From a virus, in the UHGV virus genome UHGV-0083175: a stretch of 52,653 bases of DNA, one strand, 5' to 3'. A program made the position numbers and the translations under genes. Every line of letters starts with the position of its first letter. Positions within the stretch are counted from its first letter, which is position 1. The notes below the pieces were generated by a model. The model saw only the letters and a program-made list of their open reading frames with translations. It was not told where the DNA came from and made no database searches. Shown in pieces: positions 839 to 12,613 of this stretch.

Positions 839-1849
839 ATGGCCGCATTACCATACATGCAACTGTACATAGCTGATTACCTGGCTGACACCATGCATTT
901 GTCCGCAGAGGAGCACGGCGCGTATTTGTTGTTGATGTTCAATTACTGGCAAACAGGGAAACCAATACCTAAAAACAGGCTGGCAAAAATTTCCCGTCTG
1001 ACTAACGAGCGATGGGCTGATGTGGAACCATCCTTGCGGGAGTTTTTTTGCGATAACGGCGATGAATGGGTGCATCTTCGGATTGAGGAAGATCTGGCAT
1101 CAGTCAGGGAAAAATTAACCAAAAAATCAGCCGCCGGAAAAGCATCTGTTCAGGCCAGAAGAAGCAGAAAGGAAGCATATGTTCAAACAAAACAAGAGAG
1201 AGATTTAACAGGCGTTCAAACAAATGTTGGTGTTGTGTTTGAACATGACGCAAACACAAAAGCAACTAATAAAGATACAGATCTAAAAGAATTAAACCCC
1301 ACACATAACGTGCATGAACGCGAGAGTATTCCGACCAGTGAGTCGCATGGTGCGCCGTTGCAGACAGCCGAACCTGAATACCTGGACGGCCTGAGCGAAC
1401 CCATCGGGAAATTTTCGATGACTACTGTCTGGCAGCCGTCGCCGGATTTTCGACAACGGGCAGCAGTGTGGGGTATGGCTCTGCCTGAGCCGGAATTTAC
1501 ACCTGCTGAGCTTGCCGCATTCCGGGATTACTGGATGGCGGAGGGGAAGGTTTTCACGCAGGTTCAGTGGGAGCAGAAATTTGCCCGTCACGTGCAGCAC
1601 GTCAGGGCACAGGTAAAACCAGTCAGCAAGGGGGTAAGCCATGCAGCATCAGGTGGCACGGCATCACGGGCAGTTCAGGAAATCCGGGCAGCACGCGAAC
1701 AGTGGGAACGTGACAACGGATTTATCAGCAACGGAAACGGCCTGGAAGCTGTGGGAGCTTATGGGGGAGGTGTATTCGAACCGCTGGACTCAGAAGAACG
1801 GGGCCGCACCTTCGAAGCTCTGGATTGCCCAGATTGGTGCGATGACTGA
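839..1849 (+). CDS. replication initiation protein (DUF1376 N-domain, DnaT-like C-domain)
   Basis: ORF 785..1849; MAALPYMQLYIADYLADT motif typical of the DUF1376 N-terminus, so start placed at ATG 839; C-terminal FTPAELAAFRDYW resembles DnaT. Confidence 0.65.
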   Translation: MAALPYMQLYIADYLADTMHLSAEEHGAYLLLMFNYWQTGKPIPKNRLAKISRLTNERWADVEPSLREFFCDNGDEWVHLRIEEDLASVREKLTKKSAAGKASVQARRSRKEAYVQTKQERDLTGVQTNVGVVFEHDANTKATNKDTDLKELNPTHNVHERESIPTSESHGAPLQTAEPEYLDGLSEPIGKFSMTTVWQPSPDFRQRAAVWGMALPEPEFTPAELAAFRDYWMAEGKVFTQVQWEQKFARHVQHVRAQVKPVSKGVSHAASGGTASRAVQEIRAAREQWERDNGFISNGNGLEAVGAYGGGVFEPLDSEERGRTFEALDCPDWCDD

Positions 1850-2303
1850 ACAGCAAATCCGTCTGGTCTGCCGTCAGTGCATGGACCGCTGCCGGGCGGG
1901 TGAAACGTGGCCCCCGGACCTGGCTGAGTTTGTTGCGCTGATTTCGGAGAGTGGGGCAAATCCATTTGGTCTTACGGTGGATGCAGTGATGGAAGAGTAC
2001 CGGCGCTGGCGCAATGAATCCTGGCGATACGACGGGAGTGATAAATACCCGTGGCCACAGCCTGTGCTGTACCACATCTGCCTCGAAATGCGTACCAGAG
2101 GGATTGAGCGCCAGATGACGCAGGGTGAGTTAAAACGACTTGCGGAACGGCAACTGACGAAATGGGCAAAGCATGTTGGTAACGGGATGAGTGTTCCGCC
2201 AGTGCGACGACAACTGGAAGGGGCGAAACACCCGCAAGGGCCAACGCCAATTGAACGGCTGAAACAGGAATACGAACGCCGGAAGGCAGCTGGTTTTATT
2301 TGA
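1641..2303 (+). CDS. lambda P-like replication protein (helicase loader)
   Basis: 220 aa; C-terminal DKYPWPQPVLYHICLEMRTRG...GELKRLAERQL parallels lambda gpP; GGGGG RBS before ATG 1641; overlaps the upstream ORF by ~209 nt. Confidence 0.65.
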   Translation: MQHQVARHHGQFRKSGQHANSGNVTTDLSATETAWKLWELMGEVYSNRWTQKNGAAPSKLWIAQIGAMTEQQIRLVCRQCMDRCRAGETWPPDLAEFVALISESGANPFGLTVDAVMEEYRRWRNESWRYDGSDKYPWPQPVLYHICLEMRTRGIERQMTQGELKRLAERQLTKWAKHVGNGMSVPPVRRQLEGAKHPQGPTPIERLKQEYERRKAAGFI

Positions 2304-2336
2304 ATCTGAGAAACGATTTTGTCGGAGGAAATTTTA

Positions 2337-3053
2337 ATGGAAACCGTATTTGACGCACTGAAAGCACTGAAAAGAGCCTCTTCACAGGTAGTGGCGGCCC
2401 GCCTTGGAATCAGCCGTGAAGATGCGGTCAACGAACTGTGGAAACTGAAGCGCCGCGGTGAAGCGGATAACAAGGGTTCGATGTGGTGGCTGATTCAGGC
2501 TGGTGAAAGTGAACCGGTGTCACCGGTACCGAAAGTGACAGCGCAAATGCTGATTAAGGCGATTGAACAACATGGCCCACAAACGGCAGATGAGCTGGCA
2601 CTGATGTTCGGGATTACCTCCCGCCGGGCGAATTCATCGCTGGCCATGGCAATCAGCAAAGGGCGTCTGATTCGCGTGAATCAGGGCGGTAAATTTCGTT
2701 ACTGCATACCGGGCGCTGATTTACCGGCAGAGCCGGAAGCTGCATCCGTAGCGGAAACAGATGGTAAAGCCTTTCCTCAGCCAGCAGGTGTTGCGTTACC
2801 AGTCCGGGAAACGACGACACAGGAAGAAATGAAAACAGAAATCGTGGAAGACATTGTGAAGTTACAGCCATCGGTCACCGAAACGAAAGCAGATGACCTG
2901 ATTCTACCATCGCTGCATGTGGCTAACCGCGAGCTGCGCCGGGCAAAAGGTCAGGTTCAGAAGTGGGAGCGTGTCTGCGCCGCGCTGCGGGAACTGAACA
3001 AACACAGGGATATTCTCCGGGATATTACCGCCACCAGAGAGCTGCTGCGGTGA
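2337..3053 (+). CDS. hypothetical phage protein
   Basis: ORF 2319..3053; ATG 2337 has a GGAGGA RBS; no recognised catalytic motif. Confidence 0.45.
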
Positions 3054-3367
3054 GTGGCTGGAAGAAGTGGCGCTGGGCGGAAATTATGATACTCCGGCAG
3101 TGTGCGGGAACGATGACAGTCGAAAGCATCGGCAGTCTGATTGGCCGTAGTGGGGCTGCCGTCAGGACGAAAGCGCGGGAACTGGGTATCTGCATGATGT
3201 TACGGGGTGATTATCACCAGTCAGCCAAATGTTCACAGCGTGATATTGAGCTGGCGCGGCAACTGCATCAGCGTGGCGTACCCCGACGGGAAATTGCCGA
3301 AAAGTTTGGGATGAAGTTGGGCGCAGTGAATAACTACGTTTATTTCGACAGGAGGGTTCAGGCGTGA
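3050..3367 (+). CDS. putative HTH DNA-binding protein
   Basis: ORF in frame from GTG 3050 (alternative ATG 3086); C-terminal [21 protein letters not shown] resembles sigma-70 region 4 / LuxR-type HTH. Confidence 0.4.
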
Positions 3368-3705
3368 GGGTGAGAATTTATATCGCCGGTCCGATGACGG
3401 GATATGAAAATTTCAACCGTGAGGCGTTTCACAAGGCGGAAGAAGCACTGAAACAGGAAGGGCATACCGTATTAAATCCCGCAGTACTTCCGGACGGGCT
3501 GACTCAGCCACATTACATGGATATTTGCATGGCAATGATTCGTTGTGTGGATGCGGTTTATATGCTGAAAGGCTGGCAGCGGTCGGCAGGCGCTAAGGCA
3601 GAGCTGCACTGGCGGAGAAACTGGGGCATGCAGTTATTTTCCAGGAGGCAACCAGTGAGCGAAATTAATTACCAGGAACTACGGCAGGTGAAAGAGAAAG
3701 CATAA
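3364..3705 (+). CDS. DUF4406-family protein (nucleoside deoxyribosyltransferase-like fold)
   Basis: GTG start overlapping the upstream stop; N-terminal RIYIAGPMTGYENFNREAFHKAEE is characteristic of the phage DUF4406 family. Confidence 0.55.
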   Translation: MRVRIYIAGPMTGYENFNREAFHKAEEALKQEGHTVLNPAVLPDGLTQPHYMDICMAMIRCVDAVYMLKGWQRSAGAKAELHWRRNWGMQLFSRRQPVSEINYQELRQVKEKA

Positions 3706-3815
3706 TCCAGAACTGAATAATTAAAATCAGCACTGTAAATAAAATTTAATCCTTAACCGGAGGGATTCCTGCACCCTCAGAACATCAGGAGACCGCCCGG
3801 CAGGGCGGTAGTGAA

Positions 3816-3998
3816 ATGCGAAAGTTCAAAATAATTATTGAAACGGGAATCGCCGGTGGAGATTCCGAGGATGAATTCGAAGTGAATGATGATGCGACGC
3901 CTGATGAAATTCATAACGAAGCAAAAGAAATTTTCTTTAACTACTGCAATTACTCATATCACGAAATAAAAGACGAAGAGGAAGAACAAAATGGCTGA
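3816..3998 (+). CDS. hypothetical small acidic protein
   Basis: 60-aa ORF with GGCGGTAG-type RBS; highly acidic C-terminus. Confidence 0.35.
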   Translation: MRKFKIIIETGIAGGDSEDEFEVNDDATPDEIHNEAKEIFFNYCNYSYHEIKDEEEEQNG

Positions 3999-4167
3999 TT
4001 TTGGTTCAACTAAATACAACGTCAGTTTTGAAGAATGGCATGAACTGTTAATGGACTATGCAGAGTTACGTGGTGGAAGTGCCGCCGATGCTGAAGCATG
4101 GCGTGATGACTATGAAGCAGGAAAAACTCCGGTCGAAGCATATTGTGATGAGTGGGGCTATGAATGA
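3991..4167 (+). CDS. hypothetical small protein
   Basis: 58-codon ORF (MADFGSTKYNVSFEEWHELL...) not in the supplied track; ATGA overlaps with both neighbours suggest translational coupling. Confidence 0.35.
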   Translation: MADFGSTKYNVSFEEWHELLMDYAELRGGSAADAEAWRDDYEAGKTPVEAYCDEWGYE

Positions 4168-4679
4168 GCGAGATTAATTATCAGGAAGGGCATGAAACGG
4201 CAGGGCAGGCAAAACCAGTGGCATGGCGATATCGCTACGTGAAGAAAGACGTTACAGACTTTCAGGGGAAGCTGTGGGTTGGTGACTGGAAATATGTACC
4301 GACAAAAGAGGATTGCAACGACAGACCGAACTATGAAATTCAGGCCTTATTCATCGGCCCGCCAGTCCCGGTGACATCAGAAGGACTGGTTAAAGCTGTG
4401 CGCTTTTATGAACAGGTAAAGCGTGAGAATCCGCCAGTCGAAACAGGAGCATGGAAGGATGCTGTTGACTGGGTGCTCAGAGAGGCCTGCTGTGCTGCCA
4501 TTCTGGGTAAAGCCGACAATCCACCAGCATCCGGCAATCAGGTTAGCGAATTAGCAATGTGGGTTAAACGGCTGGTCAGCCAACTGAAAAAAGCGAAGCC
4601 GGACTGCAAATTACCGGATAAGGCGATGGACTACCTGAAGCGAAACGGACTGATAAACGAGGAGAATATTTTACGATGA
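4164..4679 (+). CDS. hypothetical phage protein
   Basis: 171-aa ORF, ATG overlapping the upstream stop; N-terminus MSEINYQE repeats the C-terminal motif of the DUF4406 gene. Confidence 0.45.
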   Translation: MSEINYQEGHETAGQAKPVAWRYRYVKKDVTDFQGKLWVGDWKYVPTKEDCNDRPNYEIQALFIGPPVPVTSEGLVKAVRFYEQVKRENPPVETGAWKDAVDWVLREACCAAILGKADNPPASGNQVSELAMWVKRLVSQLKKAKPDCKLPDKAMDYLKRNGLINEENILR

Positions 4680-4969
4680 CCTGGCCTGAAGCGTTCATAA
4701 CGGTAGGAATTGCAATGGCGGTGGCGCTGGTGGTGTATTCGATTTGCCGCTGGGGATAAAAACGGTTTGCGGGGAAAGAAGAGTTAAGTAGAATTGCTGC
4801 GGGTGCTTGAGGCTGTCTGCCTCGGGCATGCCGACGTAAGGCAGACAGAGAAAAGCCCCAGTTAACATTATGCGTCTTGCAGGACGCTTAACATTAATCT
4901 GAGGCCATATCTATGACTTGCACACTTAGATTAGCCTCTTATGCGCCGAAAGGCAAGGAGCAGCAGGCT

Positions 4970-5125
4970 ATGAAGCAGCAAAAGGCGATGCTAATCGCCC
5001 TGATCGTCATCTGTATTACCGTCGTTGTAACGGTACTGGTAACGAGGAAAGACCTCTGCGAGGTACGAATCCGAACCGGCCAGACGGAGGTCGCTGTCTT
5101 CACAGCTTACGAATCTGAGAAGTAA
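4970..5125 (+). CDS. hok: Hok/Gef-family membrane toxin (type I toxin)
   Basis: MKQQKAMLIALIVICITVVVTVLVTRKDLCEVRIRTGQTEVAVFTAYESEK is near-identical to HokD/RelF; internal Met of ORF 4913..5125. Confidence 0.85.
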   Translation: MKQQKAMLIALIVICITVVVTVLVTRKDLCEVRIRTGQTEVAVFTAYESEK

Positions 5126-5193
5126 GAGACCCGGCGAGGGAGAAATCCCTCGCCACCTCTGATGTGTCAGGCATCCTCAACGCACCCGCACTT

Positions 5194-5220
5194 AACCCGC
5201 TTCTGCGGGTTTTGTTTTTT
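5194..5220 (+). terminator. rho-independent terminator after hok
   Basis: AACCCGC-ttct-GCGGGTT stem-loop followed by TTGTTTTTT. Confidence 0.6.
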
Positions 5221-5273
5221 CCTGGCATTCTGGTTTACAATTCGCACGCCGGCCTGAACAACTGGCACCTGCT

Positions 5274-5564
5274 GTGTCACCGGAGAACCCGATGGCGCAA
5301 CGTATAAAATCCCACAATTCTGAAGCCGTCCCGGCCATTAAGCGGGGGCGGCATTCGCACGTATTTAAAACCGACTGGTACCAGCATCCCCCATGCACTG
5401 AAGAACAGGCCGAATGGCTGATTCAGTGTTACCGCAGGCGCGGATACGAGGTTAAGAAAGCCATCAGCCTCGATTATCGTCACTGGATAATCTCTGTCAG
5501 GCTCCCTTATTCCGAACATCCACCGCGTCCGTCCCGCACATTCCAGCAACGTATCTGGAGGTAA
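5274..5564 (+). CDS. hypothetical protein
   Basis: 96-aa ORF between hok and the DUF968 gene; start uncertain (ATG 5274 or 5292). Confidence 0.35.
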   Translation: MSPENPMAQRIKSHNSEAVPAIKRGRHSHVFKTDWYQHPPCTEEQAEWLIQCYRRRGYEVKKAISLDYRHWIISVRLPYSEHPPRPSRTFQQRIWR

Positions 5565-5565
5565 C

Positions 5566-6615
5566 GTGCGGGTATTACTTCGACCTGTTCTGGTGCCGGA
5601 ACTTGGCCTGGTGGTCCTTAAGCCTGGACGCGAATCACGGCCTGTTTTTCATTGCGGCAGGGTGCTGGTGGAGCCGGAACCGAAAAACATGCGCGGTCTG
5701 CCGTCCGGAGTCGTTCCTGCCGTTCGCCAGCCGCTGGCAGAGGATAAAACATTACTGCCATTTTTCAGCGATGAGCGGGTTATTCGTGCAGCAGGTGGTG
5801 CAGGTGCACTGTCTGACTGGTTATTACGTCACGTGAAATCCTGCCAGTGGCCACACGGCGATTATCATCACAGCGAAACCGTCATTCACCGTTATGGTAC
5901 CGGCGCGATGGTGTTGTGCTGGCACTGTGACAACCAGCTGCGCGACCAGACATCAGAATCACTCGATCAACTTGCTCAGCAGAATCTGGTTGCCTGGATG
6001 ATTGACGTCATCCGTCACGCAATAAGCGGTACGCAGGAGAGGGAGTTATCGCTGGCCGAATTATCCTGGTGGGCGGCCTGCAATCAGGTGGTGGATGCAC
6101 TACCTGAGGCAGTAGCGCGTTGTTCGCTGGGATTACCAGCGGAAAAAATCCGCTCCGTATACCGTGAGAGTGACATCGTACCGGGAGAACAGACAGCCAT
6201 CAGCATACTGAAGCAGCGCACAAAAAATATTGCGCTGCCACTTCACGTCCACCAGCAACAAAATCCACCACAGAAAAAAACGGTTGTCAGTATCGCCGTT
6301 GATCCGGAGTCTCCTGAATCGTTCATGAGGCGGCCTAAACGTCGCCGTTGGGTTAATGAGAAATACACGCGCTGGGTAAAGACACAGCCGTGTGCGTGTT
6401 GTGGTAAGCCAGCTGACGATCCGCATCACCTGATTGGTCATGGTCAGGGGGGAATGGGAACAAAGGCCCACGATATTTTCACGCTACCGTTGTGCCGGGA
6501 GCACCACAACGAACTTCATGCAGACCCGCAGGAGTTTGAGAAAAAGTACGGCTCTCAGATTGAGTTAATTTTTCGTTTTCTTGATCACGCCTTTGCGACT
6601 GGCGTGCTCGGGTAA
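5566..6615 (+). CDS. DUF968-family protein (YdfU-like, Cys/His-rich C-terminal domain)
   Basis: 349 aa, GTG start after GGAGGT; C-terminus CACCGKP...DPHHLIGHGQ...CREHHNELH; position upstream of rusA matches Qin-type nin regions. Confidence 0.65.
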   Translation: MRVLLRPVLVPELGLVVLKPGRESRPVFHCGRVLVEPEPKNMRGLPSGVVPAVRQPLAEDKTLLPFFSDERVIRAAGGAGALSDWLLRHVKSCQWPHGDYHHSETVIHRYGTGAMVLCWHCDNQLRDQTSESLDQLAQQNLVAWMIDVIRHAISGTQERELSLAELSWWAACNQVVDALPEAVARCSLGLPAEKIRSVYRESDIVPGEQTAISILKQRTKNIALPLHVHQQQNPPQKKTVVSIAVDPESPESFMRRPKRRRWVNEKYTRWVKTQPCACCGKPADDPHHLIGHGQGGMGTKAHDIFTLPLCREHHNELHADPQEFEKKYGSQIELIFRFLDHAFATGVLG

Positions 6616-6627
6616 AAGAGGTGACTG

Positions 6628-6990
6628 ATGCTCATAGATTTGGTTTTACCTTACCCGCCGACGGTGAACACTTACTGGCGACGCCGTGGCAGCACATATT
6701 TTGTATCAAAAGCCGGGGAGCGTTATCGCCGGGCAGTGGCGCTTATTGTTCGCCAGCAGCGGCTGAAATTAAGACTGTCCGGACGGCTGGCAATAAAAAT
6801 TATTGCAGAGCCACCGGATAAGCGTCGTCGTGACCTGGACAATTTTCTGAAAGCGCCGCTGGATGCGCTGACGCATGCAGGAATGTTAATGGACGATGAG
6901 CAGTTTGATGAAATCAATATTGTACGTGGCAAGCCAGTATCTGGTGGACGGCTGGAGATAAGAATTACAGAGGTGGGTGTGCATGAATAA
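6628..6990 (+). CDS. rusA: Holliday junction resolvase RusA
   Basis: 120 aa; RRRDLDNFLKAPLDALTHAGMLMDDEQ and GGRLEIRITE align with E. coli RusA. Confidence 0.9.
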   Translation: MLIDLVLPYPPTVNTYWRRRGSTYFVSKAGERYRRAVALIVRQQRLKLRLSGRLAIKIIAEPPDKRRRDLDNFLKAPLDALTHAGMLMDDEQFDEINIVRGKPVSGGRLEIRITEVGVHE

Positions 6991-7648
6991 CCAGTATTTA
7001 CAGTTTGTTCGTGAGCAACTCATGATTGCCACTGCGGATCTTAGTGGGTCGACAAAAGGCCAGCTGGAAGTCTGGCAGGAAAATGCCCTGTTCGATACAG
7101 GGCGTTACAGACGCAAAAAAATTCGTTACCGCGATGAGGTAACCGGAAAAATGATCACGCGGGATAATCCCCCGATCCCGGGTAAACAATCACTGGCGAA
7201 AGGCTCATCAATTGCCCTGGTCAGTCCGGTTGAGTTTTCGACATCATCATGGCGACGCGCCGTTCTGTCTCTTGAAGAACATCATAAAGCCTGGCTGCTG
7301 TGGTGTTACAGCGGTAGCATTTGCTGGGAGCATCAGATCGCGATAACGCAGTGGGCGTGGACTGAATTTAATGCTCAATCCGGTACCAGAAAAATTGCAG
7401 GAAAAACTCTGGTGCGCCTGAAGACGTTGATCTGGTTGGCGGCGCAGGCGGTAAAAGCTGAGCTTTTTGGTGGGGAAGGTTACGAATACCAGGAACTGGC
7501 GTTACTGGTGGGAGTAACAACCAAAAACTGGTCCAAGACATTTACTGGTCACTGGGTTGCAATGAAACACATTTTTCATCGGCTGGATAGTGAAGCTTTA
7601 TTGTTGGTGGAGGGAACTCGTTCAAAACAAAAGGCGGCATTTTCATAG
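6983..7648 (+). CDS. late-gene antiterminator Q-like protein
   Basis: ATG 6983 overlaps the rusA stop (ATGAATAA); ~220 aa; immediately upstream of a strong promoter and terminator, as expected for Q / PR' / tR'. Confidence 0.55.
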   Translation: MNNQYLQFVREQLMIATADLSGSTKGQLEVWQENALFDTGRYRRKKIRYRDEVTGKMITRDNPPIPGKQSLAKGSSIALVSPVEFSTSSWRRAVLSLEEHHKAWLLWCYSGSICWEHQIAITQWAWTEFNAQSGTRKIAGKTLVRLKTLIWLAAQAVKAELFGGEGYEYQELALLVGVTTKNWSKTFTGHWVAMKHIFHRLDSEALLLVEGTRSKQKAAFS

Positions 7649-7655
7649 CAAAGTA

Positions 7656-7684
7656 TTGCAAAAGTAGACAAAAAGGCATATATT
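7656..7684 (+). promoter_or_regulatory. candidate late promoter (PR'-like) sigma-70 promoter
   Basis: TTGCAA (7656-7661), 17-nt spacer, TATATT (7679-7684), directly downstream of the Q-like gene. Confidence 0.5.
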
Positions 7685-7735
7685 TCGTGTAAATCTGATA
7701 TTTTGCCGTTATTATACGTGATGGCAAAGCCACTA

Positions 7736-7760
7736 AAACCCGTGACCGAGCGGGTTTTTT
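7736..7760 (+). terminator. candidate tR'-like terminator
   Basis: AAACCCG-tgaccgag-CGGGTTT followed by a T-run, ~50 nt downstream of the candidate late promoter. Confidence 0.5.
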
Positions 7761-7901
7761 ACCCCCCAAAAAATGGCATAGACATTAAACGTGATGACGA
7801 TTGTGCCAATACTTTCTCCATCAATGACGCCCCTTGACTGCATGGAATCCAATTTGTTATGTAATGTGTGTTGATATTTTTGAGTTGTTAATGGTGTTAC
7901 T

Positions 7902-8615
7902 ATGGATGACAGTGCTCTGCTCAGAAACTCTTCACTTTTTGTCGCTTATATGGGCTGTCTCGGATGGGGGAGCGCTTATTTCTATGGATGGGGTACTTCA
8001 TTTTACTATGGCTTTCCATGGTGGGTTGTCGGGGCTGGTGTCGATGATGTAGCACGAAGTTTGTTTTATGCTGTGACAGTTATTGTTATATTCCTTATTG
8101 GATGGGGAGTTGGTATTGTTTTCTTTTTGGGCATAAAACAAAAGCGCAATATACAAAATTTGAGTTTTATCCGGCTTTTTCTCGCGATATTGCTGCTTTT
8201 TATTCCACCTGTTCTGGAGTTTTCTGTAATTCATCAGCATGTTGAGCCAGATGTACTGATTTTCTGCGTTCTTGCTGCCTTTGCAATCACGCTTTTTGTC
8301 AGGTCTGGAAGAAGACTTGTTTCAGTCAAATGTTTTTCGGAAATGTCTGTTATTCGCCATCACCGAATTGAGTTCATGATGGCTGGGTTTATGATTTATT
8401 TCTGGGCATTCTCTCTTATTGCCGGTTGGTACAAACCACAGTTTAAGAGGGAATATCAGGCGGTCCACTATGAGAATGTATGGTATTACATTATTGCGCG
8501 CTATGATGATCGTCTGGTGTTATCGAAATCATACAGGAGTGGGGGTAAGAAATTCGTTATATTTAATAGCGGAAATATTAATGATTTTGAAATTAATACT
8601 GTCAGAGTACGTTAA
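7902..8615 (+). CDS. AT-rich multi-pass membrane protein (moron)
   Basis: 237 aa with several hydrophobic Trp/Phe/Gly-rich segments; markedly AT-rich relative to flanking phage genes. Confidence 0.5.
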   Translation: MDDSALLRNSSLFVAYMGCLGWGSAYFYGWGTSFYYGFPWWVVGAGVDDVARSLFYAVTVIVIFLIGWGVGIVFFLGIKQKRNIQNLSFIRLFLAILLLFIPPVLEFSVIHQHVEPDVLIFCVLAAFAITLFVRSGRRLVSVKCFSEMSVIRHHRIEFMMAGFMIYFWAFSLIAGWYKPQFKREYQAVHYENVWYYIIARYDDRLVLSKSYRSGGKKFVIFNSGNINDFEINTVRVR

Positions 8616-8788
8616 AATTTCCTGAGTAATAAAGATTTTACTGCCCGGCATTGAGCGGTTTTTTTATGCCAGAAAAATGGTGCAGTACATAAAATGTGCA
8701 GGTGGTTATTAATACCGGTCTTTCAGCTTGCTGGCTTTTTTGACAAGAGTTACTGGTGTGTCACGTTAACCGGAAAAGGGAAAAAGAC

Positions 8789-8986
8789 ATGCTGAAACAG
8801 CAGGATATGACAGAAACCGCCAGAGTGGTGTTTAATGAATTAAGCGTCACCGAACCGGCGACAGTCGGGGAGATTGCACAGAATACGTACCTTTCACGCG
8901 AACGCTGTCAGTTAATACTGACCCAGCTTGTTATGGCGGGTCTGGCAGATTATCAGTTCGGTTGTTACAGACGCCTTCAGTCCTGA
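8789..8986 (+). CDS. small winged-helix regulator (FaeA/PapI-like)
   Basis: ORF 8756..8986, start taken at internal MLKQQ; TVGEIAQNTYLSRERCQLILTQLVMAGL resembles FaeA-like HTH proteins. Confidence 0.35.
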   Translation: MLKQQDMTETARVVFNELSVTEPATVGEIAQNTYLSRERCQLILTQLVMAGLADYQFGCYRRLQS

Positions 8987-9136: not shown

Positions 9137-10195
9137 ATGCTTAATACTGTAAAAATATCCAGTTGTGAGTTAATCAACGCCGACTGCCTGGAATTTATCC
9201 GGTCGTTACCCGAAAATTCTGTTGACCTGATAGTCACGGACCCGCCGTACTTTAAAGTGAAGCCTGAGGGCTGGGATAACCAGTGGAAGGGCGACGATGA
9301 TTACCTGAAGTGGCTGGACCAGTGTCTGGCGCAGTTCTGGCGGGTGCTGAAACCTGCCGGAAGTCTTTACCTGTTCTGTGGCCATCGCCTGGCATCTGAT
9401 ATCGAAATCATGATGCGTGAACGCTTCAGTGTACTGAACCATATTATCTGGGCAAAGCCGTCCGGACGCTGGAACGGGTGCAACAAGGAAAGCCTGAGGG
9501 CGTATTTCCCCGCCACAGAGCGCATTCTGTTCGCGGAACATTATCAGGGGCCGTATCGTCCGAAAGATGCCGGGTATGAGGCGAAGGGCAGGGCACTGAA
9601 ACAGCATGTGATGGCTCCGCTGATTGCTTACTTTCGTGATGCGCGTGCTGCCCTGGGGATAACGGCAAAACAGATAGTGGATGCCACAGGAAAGAAAAAC
9701 ATGGTGTCGCACTGGTTCAGTGCCAGTCAGTGGCAGCTACCGAACGAAAGCGATTATCTGAAATTACAGGCGCTGTTTGCCCGGGTGGCAGAAGAGAAGC
9801 ATCAGCGCGGTGAACTGGAAAAGCCCCACCACCAGCTGCTGGAGACGTATACTTCACTGAACCGGCAGTATGCGGAACTGCAGAGTGAATATAAGCATCT
9901 GCGGCGGTATTTTGGCGTGACGGCGCAGGTGCCGTACACGGATGTGTGGACGCATAAACCGGTGCAGTACTATCCCGGGAAACATCCGTGCGAAAAACCG
10001 GCAGAAATGCTGCAGCAGATAATCAGCGCGAGCAGTCGTCCGGGGGACCTGGTTGCAGATTTTTTCATGGGGTCGGGTTCGACAGTCAAAGCCGCGATGG
10101 CGCTGGGGCGTCGTGCAACAGGCGTTGAGCTGGAGACTGAACGTTTTGAGCAGACGGTCAGGGAAGTTCAGGATTTAGCCAGTCAGAACGGATGA
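9137..10195 (+). CDS. DNA methyltransferase (N6-adenine/N4-cytosine class, DPPY motif)
   Basis: 352 aa; DLIVTDPPYF catalytic motif near the N-terminus and a C-terminal AdoMet-binding FFMGSGST segment. Confidence 0.8.
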   Translation: MLNTVKISSCELINADCLEFIRSLPENSVDLIVTDPPYFKVKPEGWDNQWKGDDDYLKWLDQCLAQFWRVLKPAGSLYLFCGHRLASDIEIMMRERFSVLNHIIWAKPSGRWNGCNKESLRAYFPATERILFAEHYQGPYRPKDAGYEAKGRALKQHVMAPLIAYFRDARAALGITAKQIVDATGKKNMVSHWFSASQWQLPNESDYLKLQALFARVAEEKHQRGELEKPHHQLLETYTSLNRQYAELQSEYKHLRRYFGVTAQVPYTDVWTHKPVQYYPGKHPCEKPAEMLQQIISASSRPGDLVADFFMGSGSTVKAAMALGRRATGVELETERFEQTVREVQDLASQNG

Positions 10196-10235
10196 TATTG
10201 CAGGATTAGTTACGTACCGTTATTATCCTGCGCCC

Positions 10236-10310
10236 GGCCCTTTAGCTCAGTGGTGAGAGCGAGCGACTCATAATCGCCAGGTCGCTGGTTCAAATCCAGC
10301 AAGGCCACCA
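10236..10310 (+). tRNA. tRNA with CAU anticodon (ileX-like tRNA-Ile2/Met), acceptor stem one nt short
   Basis: Hand-folded cloverleaf: D-arm GCTC/GAGC, anticodon loop CTCATAA, T-arm GCTGG-TTCAAAT-CCAGC, 3' ACCA; 3' acceptor strand AAGGCC versus expected AAGGGCC. Confidence 0.55.
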
Positions 10311-10319
10311 TATCACATA

Positions 10320-10396
10320 CCGCCATTAGCTCATCGGGATAGAGCGCCAGCCTTCGAAGCTGGCTGCGCGGGGTTCGAGTCCTCGATGGCGGTCCA
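10320..10396 (+). tRNA. tRNA-Arg (anticodon UCG)
   Basis: Complete 77-nt cloverleaf: acceptor CCGCCAT/ATGGCGG, anticodon loop CTTCGAA, T-arm CGGGG-TTCGAGT-CCTCG, 3' TCCA. Confidence 0.8.
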
Positions 10397-10674
10397 TTAT
10401 CTGCATTATGCGTTGTTGGTTCTGATGAGTGAATCATTGTCTTTTGAGCAACAGGCTATCATATAAGATAGCCTCAGACTTCCTTGTTTATTCTCGCCGG
10501 ATGCTTCGTAGATATTTGCAGGCATCTGTATGCAGGGGTATTATTGCGGCATATATCATCCGGAAAAATAAAAACTACATGCTGATCCGGAGATGATAGT
10601 TACAAGTCCTCCCGGATCCCGCATATTTACTATATTTTATAGATAATTGTTCTTGTTAATATGGAGATGGATAA

Positions 10675-11103
10675 ATGTATTGCCGTGCTGTACCGGTTCT
10701 TGTTTTGATATTAGCCAGTCTGACAACTGGCTGCACAAAAGATGTATCGACAAATAATTATGATGCTTCTCTGTATCACTCAGATAAATTAATAAAGTCG
10801 CAAAATTTGAGCTCATCGGAACGTACCCCTGATGCCAGTGAAGAAATCCGGCTGTATGCCATTCAGGTCAGGAAAGCCATAGAAGAACAGTTAAAGGATG
10901 CGAGTAAGTATTCAGGAAAAGAGTGTTCACTGAGAATGTATATGGCCCCGAATGGTCTTCTGCTACAGGTTAAAAGAGAAAGCGGTGATCCCGATTTATG
11001 TCGTGAAGCGATGAATGCAGTAAAGAATGCTGATATACCATCACCACCGTCTTCAGGAGTATATAAAGCATTTAGAAATGGCGTGCTGGATTTTAAACTC
11101 TGA
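10675..11103 (+). CDS. lipoprotein with TolA C-terminal domain (TolA-III) homology
   Basis: Signal peptide with lipobox LTTGC; C-terminal ~90 aa (GKECSLRMYMAPNGLLLQVKRESGDPDLCREAM...VYKAFRNGVLDFKL) align with E. coli TolA domain III. Confidence 0.7.
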   Translation: MYCRAVPVLVLILASLTTGCTKDVSTNNYDASLYHSDKLIKSQNLSSSERTPDASEEIRLYAIQVRKAIEEQLKDASKYSGKECSLRMYMAPNGLLLQVKRESGDPDLCREAMNAVKNADIPSPPSSGVYKAFRNGVLDFKL

Positions 11104-11168
11104 CAGGGGGAGAAGATTTTCTCCTGTCCTGATGATTTTGGGGCGCTGGAAAGATATTGTGCTGTGAA

Positions 11169-11560
11169 GTGTTAAATCCCTCACAATTCAGTAAGTTGAC
11201 AGTTGCCTGTCAGACTGAGCATTTGTTAAAAAAATTTCGCATGGTGAATCCCCCTGTGCGGAGGGGCGACTGGTGAACGGTATGATCTCTTTGATGATCG
11301 TAAGCGAGAATACGCGGGTTTGGTGTCACCGGGCTGAACTCACCGGGAGGCACCCGGCACCATGCTCATGGTGATACAGAAATGCGGCTTCAGCCCCTCT
11401 CCGGAGGGGCTTTCTTATGGACAAAAAAAGCCCGCGCTGGGAGACGCGGGCGGCAAGGAATAAACAATAAAACGTGAAGTAATACTTCAACTGGCGAATA
11501 ATACCCGACAGTAATCACTCTGCGCAATAGCGCGGCCTTTTTCGAATTGCGGGCTGTAGT
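11169..11560 (+). repeat. structured repeat unit A (with 3' extension shared with unit D)
   Basis: Shares with three downstream units the blocks GTGTTAAATYCCTCACAATTCA, TTGTTAAAAAA, GCATGGTGAATCCCCCTGTGCGGAGGGG, CACCGGGAGGCACCCGGCA and a terminator hairpin. Confidence 0.8.
11239..11416 (+). ncRNA. candidate small RNA, repeat copy A
   Basis: Runs from conserved GCATGGTG to terminator GCCCCTCTCCGGAGGGGC + T-run; 5' CATGGTG can pair with 3' CACCATG; two internal hairpins. Confidence 0.35.
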
Positions 11561-11575
11561 CTCCCTTCTGCCGGG

Positions 11576-11735
11576 TGGCCTGGTTGCAGATTTCTTCATG
11601 GGGTAGGGTTCGGCAGTTAAAGCAGCGATGGCGCTGGGGCGTCGTGCAACTGGCGTTGAGCTGGATACCGGGCGTTTTGAACAGACTGCGCAGGAAATCA
11701 GGGATGTATTTAGCGGGAGCGGTTTGCAGAAGTAA
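11576..11735 (+). pseudogene. duplicated 3' fragment of the DNA methyltransferase gene
   Basis: ~150 nt nearly identical to 10041..10195; translates as GLVADFFMG*GSAVKAAMALGRRATGVELDTGRFEQ with an in-frame stop. Confidence 0.6.
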
Positions 11736-11798
11736 TCTCCCAAAATGCCATTTTTGGAATATACTGGTATTAAGTCTTTTTGCTCAGGTTAATTCAAA

Positions 11799-12524
11799 AT
11801 GGATGTTGCCTGCTCTGTGGTCCTGATTCGCTATCCGATAGATATTTTTCTTGAAAAAGAAAAAGTTTCACTCGATGCCGGAAGTGTTATGCTTGTTGCC
11901 AGAAATATAAGAGGGCTTTTCTGTGCTTATGCCGACAGAGTGAAAATGGCAGATATAAGTAACAGCGTCGTCAATCAGTATCTGGAAAGGGAGTGTGAAC
12001 TGACGGAGTATACACCGACAAAAATGCCTCTTTATTTGATGTCTGATATTTACAATACGGAACTGGCGGAGGCTTTAATAACCCAGCATAGTGAATCCAG
12101 TGATACTTTGAAGGATTTCTCTGTTATAACCGCATTTTCATGTATCTCCTTATTTGCAACAGACAGGCGTCTGCCATTATTTTTGTCCGGTGCTGTAAAT
12201 AATATCAGCTGTAAAGTAAGGGCTATAATTCAGACCGACATATCGGCAGGCTGGATGCTAGGTGTGATTGCATTACAATTGCATATGAGCGAAAGCTTGT
12301 TGAAGCGAAAACTTAAGGATGAAGGTTATAGCTTTAGTCGGTTGTTGCTGGAGGAGCGAATGCGTGTTGCTGTTAATCTTGTATGTTTCCAGCGAGAGTG
12401 TGGACAAGCGATAGCGGAAAAATGTGGTTACTCAAGTAAGTCCTATTTCATTTCTGTATTTCACCAGTATTATGGTGCACCACCTGAGAGCTATGCATAT
12501 TTGCAGAAAGCAGACGTTATCTGA
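11799..12524 (+). CDS. AraC-family transcriptional regulator (moron)
   Basis: 241 aa; C-terminal double HTH (GWMLGVIALQLHMSESLLKRKLKDEGYSFSRLL...IAEKCGYSSKSYFISVFHQYYGAPPESY); AT-rich. Confidence 0.6.
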   Translation: MDVACSVVLIRYPIDIFLEKEKVSLDAGSVMLVARNIRGLFCAYADRVKMADISNSVVNQYLERECELTEYTPTKMPLYLMSDIYNTELAEALITQHSESSDTLKDFSVITAFSCISLFATDRRLPLFLSGAVNNISCKVRAIIQTDISAGWMLGVIALQLHMSESLLKRKLKDEGYSFSRLLLEERMRVAVNLVCFQRECGQAIAEKCGYSSKSYFISVFHQYYGAPPESYAYLQKADVI

Positions 12525-12613
12525 TGTTTTTTCATCAGGCATATATTGATTGACTGTATTAGATATAGTCTGAATGTGTTCAGCATAAAAAGTTATAATC
12601 ATTTGGTGTTTGC

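Follow-up and report, generated by a model that had tools for sequence, protein, structure and literature searches.

A probable phage 82-type late switch and the accessory TfpB/STM1630-family membrane-protein gene behind it in a lambdoid prophage of Escherichia coli

We analyzed a 52,653-nt stretch of viral DNA, genome UHGV-0083175 (hereafter the window), with a focus on positions 7656 to 8615. The window is a lambdoid prophage of Shiga-toxin-type Escherichia coli. On its + strand, the replication and nin-region genes are followed by a DUF968 gene (5566-6615), a RusA gene (6628-6990) and a Q-like antiterminator gene, behind which stand a late promoter, PR', a terminator, tR', and a gene for a 237-amino-acid (237-aa) protein. 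We consider it very likely that this locus is a lambdoid late switch of the phage 82 type, directly followed by an accessory gene for a membrane protein of the TfpB/STM1630 family. The segment 7600-8700 is 100% identical to the STEC435 chromosome, and about 200 complete genomes contain near-identical copies of it. Sequence and comparison show the identity of Q, the conservation of PR' and its pause signal, the terminator, that the 237-aa gene is coding and to which family it belongs, and the presence or absence of that gene in other genomes; the transcription start site, the dependence on Q, the membrane topology and the gene's own promoter are inferred.

The antiterminator gene and the late promoter

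The antiterminator gene lies at 6983-7648 on the + strand. Its product matches the Pfam profile PF06323 (E 1.3e-90, 216 of 220 profile positions covered) and phrog_304 ('anti-termination protein Q-like'), corresponds to the RefSeq coding sequence WP_001064918.1, and is 77% identical to the authentic Q of phage 82 (X92588). In the literature, PF06323 is equated with the Q82 family, and two further Q families unrelated to it are distinguished (PMC9388147). Judged by these matches, the gene is a Q82-family antiterminator gene. The mechanically called open reading frame (ORF) begins with GTG at 6977, and we used the conserved ATG start at 6983; the stop codon is TAG at 7646-7648. Comparison of the C termini (7622-7669) placed this stop 8 codons before that of Q in phages 82, 434, vB_EcoM-606R7 (hereafter 606R7) and PhiR47_2, in which the Q frame reads through the -35 hexamer of PR' (..QQNIAKLD). 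The shortened allele is a RefSeq protein and accompanies the Q-PR'-tR' unit in about 200 genomes.

The late promoter PR' (7656-7684, + strand) consists of a -35 hexamer TTGCAA (7656-7661) that begins 8 nt past the Q stop codon, a 17-nt spacer and a -10 hexamer TATATT (7679-7684). A preliminary description of this DNA had reported the same motif just after a Q-like gene and had read it, together with a terminator, as a PR'/tR' arrangement; the motif is present as reported, and the arrangement is supported by the PF06323 match, the similarity to phage 82 Q and the conservation of promoter, pause signal and terminator. The description also called the promoter near-consensus, which we could not sustain: only 9 of 12 positions match the consensus (4/6 and 5/6), and a promoter scan found seven sites of 9/12 quality in 4.5 kb, compared with 5.5 +/- 2.4 in shuffled sequence. 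Because the hexamers by themselves are not above chance, the support for PR' comes from its conservation and from the pause signature downstream of it.

When the window was aligned with 434, 606R7, PPompW and PhiR47_2, the -35 block TTGCAAAA and the initial transcribed sequence AAAT.TG.TAT.TTG were invariant in all five phages; the -10 hexamer was kept as TATAYT (within CATATAYT), and the other positions varied. A strict search pattern covering the -10 hexamer and the initial transcribed sequence, TATAYTNNRTGYAAATCTGATAT, was run on species-representative genomes and matched 32 of them. TTGCA(A/G/T) was present 17 nt upstream in 29 of the 32, and a Q82-like gene ended 45-54 nt before +1 in 27. 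We discarded the remaining three matches, which had neither the upstream hexamer nor a Q82-like gene, as chance. The unit is thus kept across genera while its flanks and terminator sequences are replaced, and this pattern points to selection on function.

Transcription is predicted to start at A7691, 7 nt beyond the -10 hexamer. Counted from this +1, the initial transcribed region (7691-7716, + strand) contains the features of a predicted sigma70-dependent pause signal: TG at +6/+7 (7696-7697), a -10-like TATTTT at +9 to +14 (7699-7704), GCC at +15 to +17 (7705-7707), and the pause-site T at +25 followed by A at +26 (7715-7716). For pR' of phage 82, the published features are a pause element resembling an extended -10, GCC at +15 to +17 (the 'discriminator'), an AT-rich stretch, and a pause at +25/+26 with U at +25 (PMC5001585). 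All four features of the window (TG, TATTTT, GCC and T) sit at the offsets published for phage 82. Since X92588 ends at the Q stop codon, this comparison was made through the published description of pR' and through PhiR47_2 as a proxy. The Q proteins of PhiR47_2 and phage 82 share 96.9% identity, and from +1 to +17 PhiR47_2 has the same sequence as the window. Overall, PR' would be a genuine Q82-type late promoter, for which both promoter activity and pausing are predicted.

The Q-binding element has been placed between the -35 and -10 hexamers (PMC4914094). Two types of PR' spacer were found, and they track two Q subgroups: AAGTAGA...GGCA in the window, 606R7 and PPompW, and AACTGGATTAAAA..CA in 82, PhiR47_2 and 434. 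Q proteins of the window-type subgroup are only 74-77% identical to those of the 82 subgroup. Such co-variation is what a cognate Q-binding element predicts, and it is suggestive of a putative element of this kind in the window spacer. Compared with phage 82, the window shares the Q family, the TTGCAA and TATATT hexamers at equal spacing, and the pause signature (the last by way of the published features and the PhiR47_2 proxy). However, it has a spacer of the second sequence type, a Q that is 8 residues shorter, and a different terminator sequence.

On the - strand, TTGCN6TTGC at 7648-7661 is the sole CII-box consensus in the 52.6-kb window, and it coincides in position with the annotated paQ/CII site of phage 434. 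As a lambda CII box of a paQ-like antisense promoter, this site was rejected, because the palindromic -35 hexamer supplies one half of the match and about 3.7 chance matches are expected in the window.

The terminator and the leader RNA

The intrinsic terminator that the preliminary description had placed about 50 nt downstream was confirmed. tR' (7735-7760, + strand) has the stem AAAACCCGT/GCGGGTTTT, the loop GACCGA and a T-run at 7755-7760, and the hairpin with its T-run begins 50 nt downstream of the -10 hexamer. AAAACCCGT-GACCGA-GCGGGTTTT followed by TT folds with a free energy (dG) of -11.9 kcal/mol and a z score of -3.5, and none of 200 shuffles was as stable. A terminator scan did not call tR', likely because an A-U extension of the stem uses most of the T-run. 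In the 23 Q82-type units listed, the window included, the terminator ends between +54 and +80 and is built from several unrelated stem sequences; the four related phages and the species loci with listed terminators, 19 of 29, all fall in this range. Therefore, the position of the terminator has been retained while its sequence has been replaced.

A transcript made independently of Q would end at about 7757-7761 and yield a leader RNA of about 67-71 nt. The segment 7691-7775 folds into two hairpins (dG -24.1, z -4.4). The first of these (7701-7729, + strand, +11 to +39) also occurs in 606R7 and PPompW; its deletion in 434 makes it probably dispensable. A 44-aa ORF that spans the leader and the terminator (7703-7837; 'hypothetical' in 606R7) was set aside as most likely a spurious call.

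We compared the leader with the Rfam family isrJ (RF01393). Positions 7688-7759 aligned with it over the full length at 20.0 bits (E 0.08-0.9), below the gathering score of 37, and the window leader shares the first 14 nt of isrJ and its two-hairpin layout. Among the 18 Q82-type loci scanned, 13 carried isrJ above the gathering score (43.6-80.2 bits) precisely at the PR' leader. Therefore, isrJ corresponds to the terminated leader of Q82-type late promoters. It looks like a generic terminated leader of Q82-type prophages, with the window leader as a putative divergent variant, and this correspondence would bear on the annotation of 'island-encoded sRNAs' (small RNAs) in Salmonella and other Enterobacteriaceae.

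IsrJ itself is a Gifsy-1 sRNA that is abundant under all conditions (PMC7067206, PMC4825925). A precedent is also offered by StxS, for which a PR' that is always active, a short RNA made in lysogens, and a leader acting as a small RNA have been described (PMC7547250). IsrJ, StxS and the predicted window leader are all short, with lengths of about 70-77 nt, and each has its 3' end at an intrinsic terminator of a lambdoid late-regulatory region. In contrast to isrJ, the window has a first hairpin of different sequence, and in Gifsy-1 isrJ lies after anrP and not directly after antQ (PMC4825925).

The membrane-protein gene, its family and its origin

The gene behind tR' (7902-8615, + strand) encodes a 237-aa protein with several hydrophobic segments, in agreement with the multi-pass membrane protein announced in the preliminary description. 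The G+C content (GC) of the ORF is 0.40, and 0.37 at third codon positions (GC3), compared with 0.49-0.54 in the neighbouring genes and 0.51 in the whole window. It had been described as strongly AT-rich; its GC is indeed lower than that of the window, but the difference of about 11 GC points is only moderate. The pairwise ratio of nonsynonymous to synonymous substitution rates (dN/dS) is 0.18 at unsaturated dS values of 0.57-0.82, and both the start codon and the length are conserved in 25 aligned homologues. By these measures, the ORF is a genuine gene under purifying selection.

The statement that the protein has no recognised family did not survive. Its match to phrog_1521 has an E value of 2.6e-85 and spans profile positions 1-221 of 222, a precomputed assignment to PF27470 'TfpB' is present on 104 of 104 homologues, including those that are 95-97% identical, and an allele with 98% identity is named 'STM1630 family protein' in RefSeq/PGAP. 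The copies of the Pfam and NCBIfam profiles that we searched gave no match to the protein, and the family is found only in newer resources. The Pfam name presumably comes from Moraxella TfpB, and one E. coli protein is labelled 'protein tfpB'; we treat this link, and with it a possible relationship to the pilin-inversion locus, as a candidate. Literature searches under PF27470 and TfpB found nothing on the function of the family.

Two alignments of the family contain 31-38 invariant columns. The N-terminal third is extremely conserved, with the stretch SS..AYMG.LGWGSAYFYGWG.SFYYGFPWW..G..D..ARSLF, and the C-terminal region is conserved too. The window protein fits the family pattern, which combines the motif SS..AY.G..GW..AY.YGWG...YYG.PWW with a length of about 237-240 aa, five helices and a C-terminal beta domain. 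The topology prediction called for in the preliminary description gave five helices, based on hydropathy and an AlphaFold2 model. The hydropathy profile has four clear hydrophobic segments and an aromatic and Gly-rich N-terminal segment, and the model has five long helices (residues about 4-36, 47-79, 89-111, 116-139 and 155-181) and a five-strand C-terminal beta domain (184-235). Two loops carry a strong positive charge (78-88 and 134-156) and are predicted to face the cytoplasm; the N terminus would then be on the inner side of the membrane and the beta domain in the periplasm. The protein is therefore modelled as a polytopic inner-membrane protein with a cytoplasmic N terminus and a small periplasmic beta domain.

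Fold searches returned no usable structural analogue. A profile search of a word-indexed protein collection added almost nothing outside Enterobacterales, and an exhaustive hidden Markov model search of 1.84 billion representative proteins returned 71 relatives. The full-length distant relatives (230-260 aa) retain the motif and the layout, and those that could be placed are single genes amid housekeeping genes on small chromosomes. A Salmonella cluster of 2681 member sequences, with 47% identity to the window protein, adjoins a Sif/GDSL-lipase gene, which is sseJ, and was therefore identified as STM1630. STM1630 of Salmonella Typhimurium (238 aa) is alike in family, length and N-terminal aromatic motif. 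It differs from the window gene in being a fixed chromosomal gene outside any intact prophage, with its own mapped promoter and with no Q, PR' or tR' upstream.

A candidate promoter of the 237-aa gene itself lies at 7834-7863 on the + strand. It consists of TTGACT (7834-7839), 17 nt and TTATGT (7857-7862), or alternatively of TG (7855-7856) and TATGTA (7858-7863). The block CTTGAC(T/G)-17-TTATG is kept upstream of the gene in 434, in O157:H7, in an Stx2j prophage and in an enterotoxigenic E. coli (ETEC) plasmid, and it aligns with the promoter region of STM1630, for which a start site and a -10 box have been mapped (PMC6785131). It is plausible that the 237-aa gene has two routes of expression, Q-dependent read-through and low-level transcription from a promoter of its own.

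The distribution of the gene is patchy. Megablast of 7600-8700 against 50,697 phage records gave no match; tblastn with the 237-aa protein found matches in phages 434 and 2B8, and blastn detected the gene in 1197 of 5426 complete E. coli genomes (about 22%). The window is homologous in DNA sequence to 606R7 and PPompW as far as the final bases of tR' (7758-7760), beyond which those phages carry tRNA genes; PhiR47_2, without the 237-aa gene, runs on to a holin gene. For 23 other Q82-type units, 1.2 kb or more of sequence past the unit was available; not one of them carried a homologue, and their first downstream ORFs were all different. Genes of the family stand behind a Q82-type Q in phage 434 and O157:H7 and behind a Q21-family Q in Yersinia.

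Further contexts were observed outside these phages. In E. coli 2012C-4221 (locus 1935-5309), a family gene lies between the gene for a 273-aa antiterminator and tRNA-Ile plus stx2j; in this Stx2j prophage, it would be co-transcribed with the toxin genes. On a plasmid of ETEC1721 (locus 982-3709), a family gene lies about 870 bp from eltAB in divergent orientation. In Citrobacter rodentium and Salmonella, the family gene is found upstream of the same genes for a zinc alcohol dehydrogenase, a Tar-like chemoreceptor and a LysR regulator. On its upstream side lie LpxR fragments in C. rodentium and sseJ in Salmonella, and an intact lpxR is located just upstream of Q in the 434 and O157:H7 prophages. 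Given this position of lpxR, the chromosomal copies of the family look like relics of an old prophage late region.

Taken together, the absence of the 237-aa gene from close relatives, its deviant composition, its occurrence in three antiterminator contexts and its presence at non-prophage sites indicate that it is a moron, as the preliminary description had proposed, and thus a cargo gene and not a core gene. Classical lambdoid morons, in the slot behind Q and elsewhere, include stx, cspB/cspF of Qin, bor/lom of lambda and gene 15 of HK97. Like them, the window gene is an extra gene of deviant composition between modules that are adjacent in relatives, and it lies in the known cargo hot spot past tR'. 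Unlike them, it has no functional terminator of its own, and its promoter is represented by the conserved block only. The closest parallel in gene order is provided by phage 434 (CPT_434_67/CPT_434_68) and O157:H7 prophages, in which a Q82-type Q, PR' and a terminator are likewise followed by a TfpB-family gene ('putative membrane protein'), with the same promoter-like block upstream of the gene. However, the proteins of the window and of 434 are only 55.7% identical, and the leader of 434 is about 20 nt shorter. Downstream, 434 continues with a DUF3927 'TciB' gene and others, whereas the window continues with a tR' remnant, a phrog_331 gene and a methylase module.

The sequences flanking the gene suggest how it arrived. 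Immediately past tR', the segment 7761-7806 (+ strand, ..AAAAATGG..ACATTAAACGTG..) aligns with SfV, 1720a-02 and phiP27 and is the first of two copies (direct repeats D1/D2); a segment of this type follows tR' in many lambdoid phages. Past the gene, at 8640-8700 (+ strand), lies a decayed second copy of the tR' module, in which the T-run (8659-8665) and the downstream segment have been kept and the hairpin has been lost; repeat D2 is 74% identical over 34 nt. The decayed copy forms the 3' boundary between the cargo gene and the module that follows. This copy aligns with the annotated post-Q terminator of SfV and its equivalents in 1720a-02 and phiP27. It folds with a dG of -5.1 and a z score of about 0, compared with -14.0 for the SfV equivalent, and we rejected 8640-8665 as a terminator of the moron itself, since it folds no better than shuffled sequence. 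Homology of the window to Stx2 phages, phiP27 and SfV starts at 8632-8655 and covers the phrog_331 and methylase module. In SfV and 1720a-02, Q and tR' are joined directly to this module; in phiP27, a GIY-YIG nuclease gene lies between them. An intact and a decayed tR' module thus bracket the gene, which is the footprint expected of recombination in a widely shared sequence. The 237-aa gene was probably acquired via recombination within the conserved tR' module, and it appears that late-region cassettes are joined by recombination at the terminator module that they share.

Regulation, possible roles and neighbouring genes

We propose the following mechanism for the locus. RNA polymerase with sigma70 would start at PR' at about 7691; sigma70 would then re-bind the extended -10-like element at +6 to +14 and cause the polymerase to pause near +25 (7715). 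In the absence of Q, transcription would stop at tR' (about 7757-7761), and an IsrJ-like leader of about 70 nt would be made continuously in the lysogen. After induction, accumulated Q would bind between the -35 and -10 hexamers and load onto the paused polymerase, and the modified polymerase would read past tR' into the 237-aa gene, the phrog_331 gene, the methylase gene, the tRNA genes, and the lysis and morphogenesis genes. The 237-aa gene would thereby combine a basal level of expression from the promoter block at 7834-7863 with strong Q-dependent late expression.

Several observations weigh against this interpretation. Taken alone, the PR' hexamers are at chance level, and Q is 8 residues shorter at its C terminus than the characterised Q82 proteins, so that the activity of this allele is only putative. 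The leader, with 20 bits against a gathering score of 37, is not a member of isrJ by the Rfam criterion. The candidate own promoter combines a good -35 with a poor -10 hexamer and was not called by the scan, and no functional terminator follows the gene, so that the classical promoter-gene-terminator layout of a moron is incomplete. The quality of the AlphaFold2 model is moderate (predicted local distance difference test, pLDDT, 66; predicted template modelling score, pTM, 0.49), and 11 Lys/Arg residues in the C-terminal domain sit uneasily with a periplasmic location. Moreover, deletion of STM1630 left replication inside macrophages and growth in lysogeny broth unchanged (PMC6785131), which also counts against a role in host fitness. 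The chance-level hexamers and the missing last 8 residues of Q would fit a cryptic prophage in which promoter and terminator are inactive relics, their motifs kept by recent common descent. We regard such decay as very improbable, given that the unit is conserved across genera with its flanking and terminator sequences replaced, that the window contains a full late gene set including lysis genes and large later ORFs, and that the shortened Q is the RefSeq protein found with the unit in about 200 genomes.

Returning to a functional switch with a cargo gene behind it, we rank superinfection exclusion or modulation of host fitness and virulence ahead of a core lytic role for the 237-aa protein. 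We tentatively suggest that it acts at the level of the envelope to the benefit of the lysogen, for example by blocking superinfecting phage at the inner membrane. Prophage inner-membrane exclusion proteins are a known precedent. The protein would then be a superinfection-exclusion or anti-phage factor whose periplasmic face (the aromatic and Gly-rich loop, the invariant D48 and R52, and the beta domain) blocks DNA entry or a receptor, and which is made in lysogens and strongly at late times. This is possible, though far from assured. The position and composition expected of a moron fit it, as do the predicted periplasmic location of the most conserved part of a polytopic protein and the widespread but patchy occurrence of the gene in prophages of E. 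coli and its relatives. However, none of the 5027 PADLOC defence models matched the protein significantly (the best was AbiC, E 0.24, 8.9 bits), no structural analogue was found, and the distant relatives stand alone among housekeeping genes, which suggests a cellular role independent of phages.

Alternatively, the protein would be a lysogenic-conversion factor for host fitness or virulence, which alters envelope physiology and is expressed from its own regulated promoter, independently of the phage cycle; we consider this doubtful. The STM1630 orthologue in Salmonella (47% identical, adjoining sseJ) groups with regulons of the Salmonella pathogenicity island 2 (SPI-2) and of virulence (PMC2639726), and a separate start site with a -10 box belongs to it (PMC6785131). 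It was picked from intra-macrophage RNA sequencing, and its expression in D23580 is below that in 4/74 during macrophage infection. In a screen, its deletion mutant was hypermotile, with 1.72-fold swimming and 1.62-fold swarming (PMC4219756), and copies of the family in E. coli adjoin stx2j and eltAB. Besides the lack of effect of the deletion noted above, ST313 strains have lost the STM1630 promoter without obvious cost, and the adjacency to toxin genes may simply reflect a common cargo slot behind Q. Additionally, a follow-up study on motility re-tested the STM1630 deletion, and the accessible part of that report gives no confirmed phenotype (PMC4534456).

A genuine late lytic function, in which the protein would modulate lysis timing or remodel the membrane, be expressed by Q read-through only and not be a moron at all, is improbable. 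The gene is always co-oriented with the late operon, it is the first gene past the antiterminator in several phage types, and no functional terminator separates it from the downstream late genes. However, 23 of 23 other Q82-type units lack it, as do close relatives, it is under purifying selection also in the non-phage settings of Salmonella, C. rodentium and plasmids, and separate holin, endolysin and Rz genes lie further downstream.

The regulatory part of the locus is textbook lambdoid biology of a known type, that of phage 82, to which the window adds one more naturally occurring combination of a Q82-type Q and a spacer sequence. The 237-aa gene is a further member of a known but uncharacterised family and lies in the usual cargo slot. 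This family occurs in phage 434, in O157:H7, and beside stx2j, eltAB and sseJ. As the first gene behind tR', the 237-aa gene would be co-induced with toxin and lysis genes. A more far-reaching reading, which we hold to be unlikely, is that the protein represents a new class of prophage inner-membrane effector, acting in exclusion or envelope remodelling and switched on by Q together with toxin and late genes, or else that the constitutive leader is a trans-acting IsrJ-like sRNA. If the leader acted in trans, Rfam isrJ would describe a general 'leader RNA' of all Q82-type prophages.

Downstream of the 237-aa gene, the + strand carries the phrog_331 gene (8789-8986), which encodes a small winged-helix-like protein, the DNA methyltransferase gene (9137-10195), both predicted to lie on the same late transcript, and tRNA-Met and tRNA-Arg (10235-10396). 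Beyond the tRNA genes come an AT-rich insert and then genes for a NanS-p-like esterase, a holin, a lysozyme and Rz, followed by the morphogenesis genes. The insert (10400-12600, GC about 0.37-0.44) follows tRNA-Met/tRNA-Arg in the slot that holds stx in Stx phages. It encodes a 142-aa TolA-C-terminal/TonB_2-like protein (10675-11103; a lipoprotein) and a 241-aa AraC-type regulator (11799-12524), and it is present at a coverage of at least 80% in 78 complete E. coli genomes. The immunity region of the window is YdaS/YdaT-like in appearance and not lambda-like.

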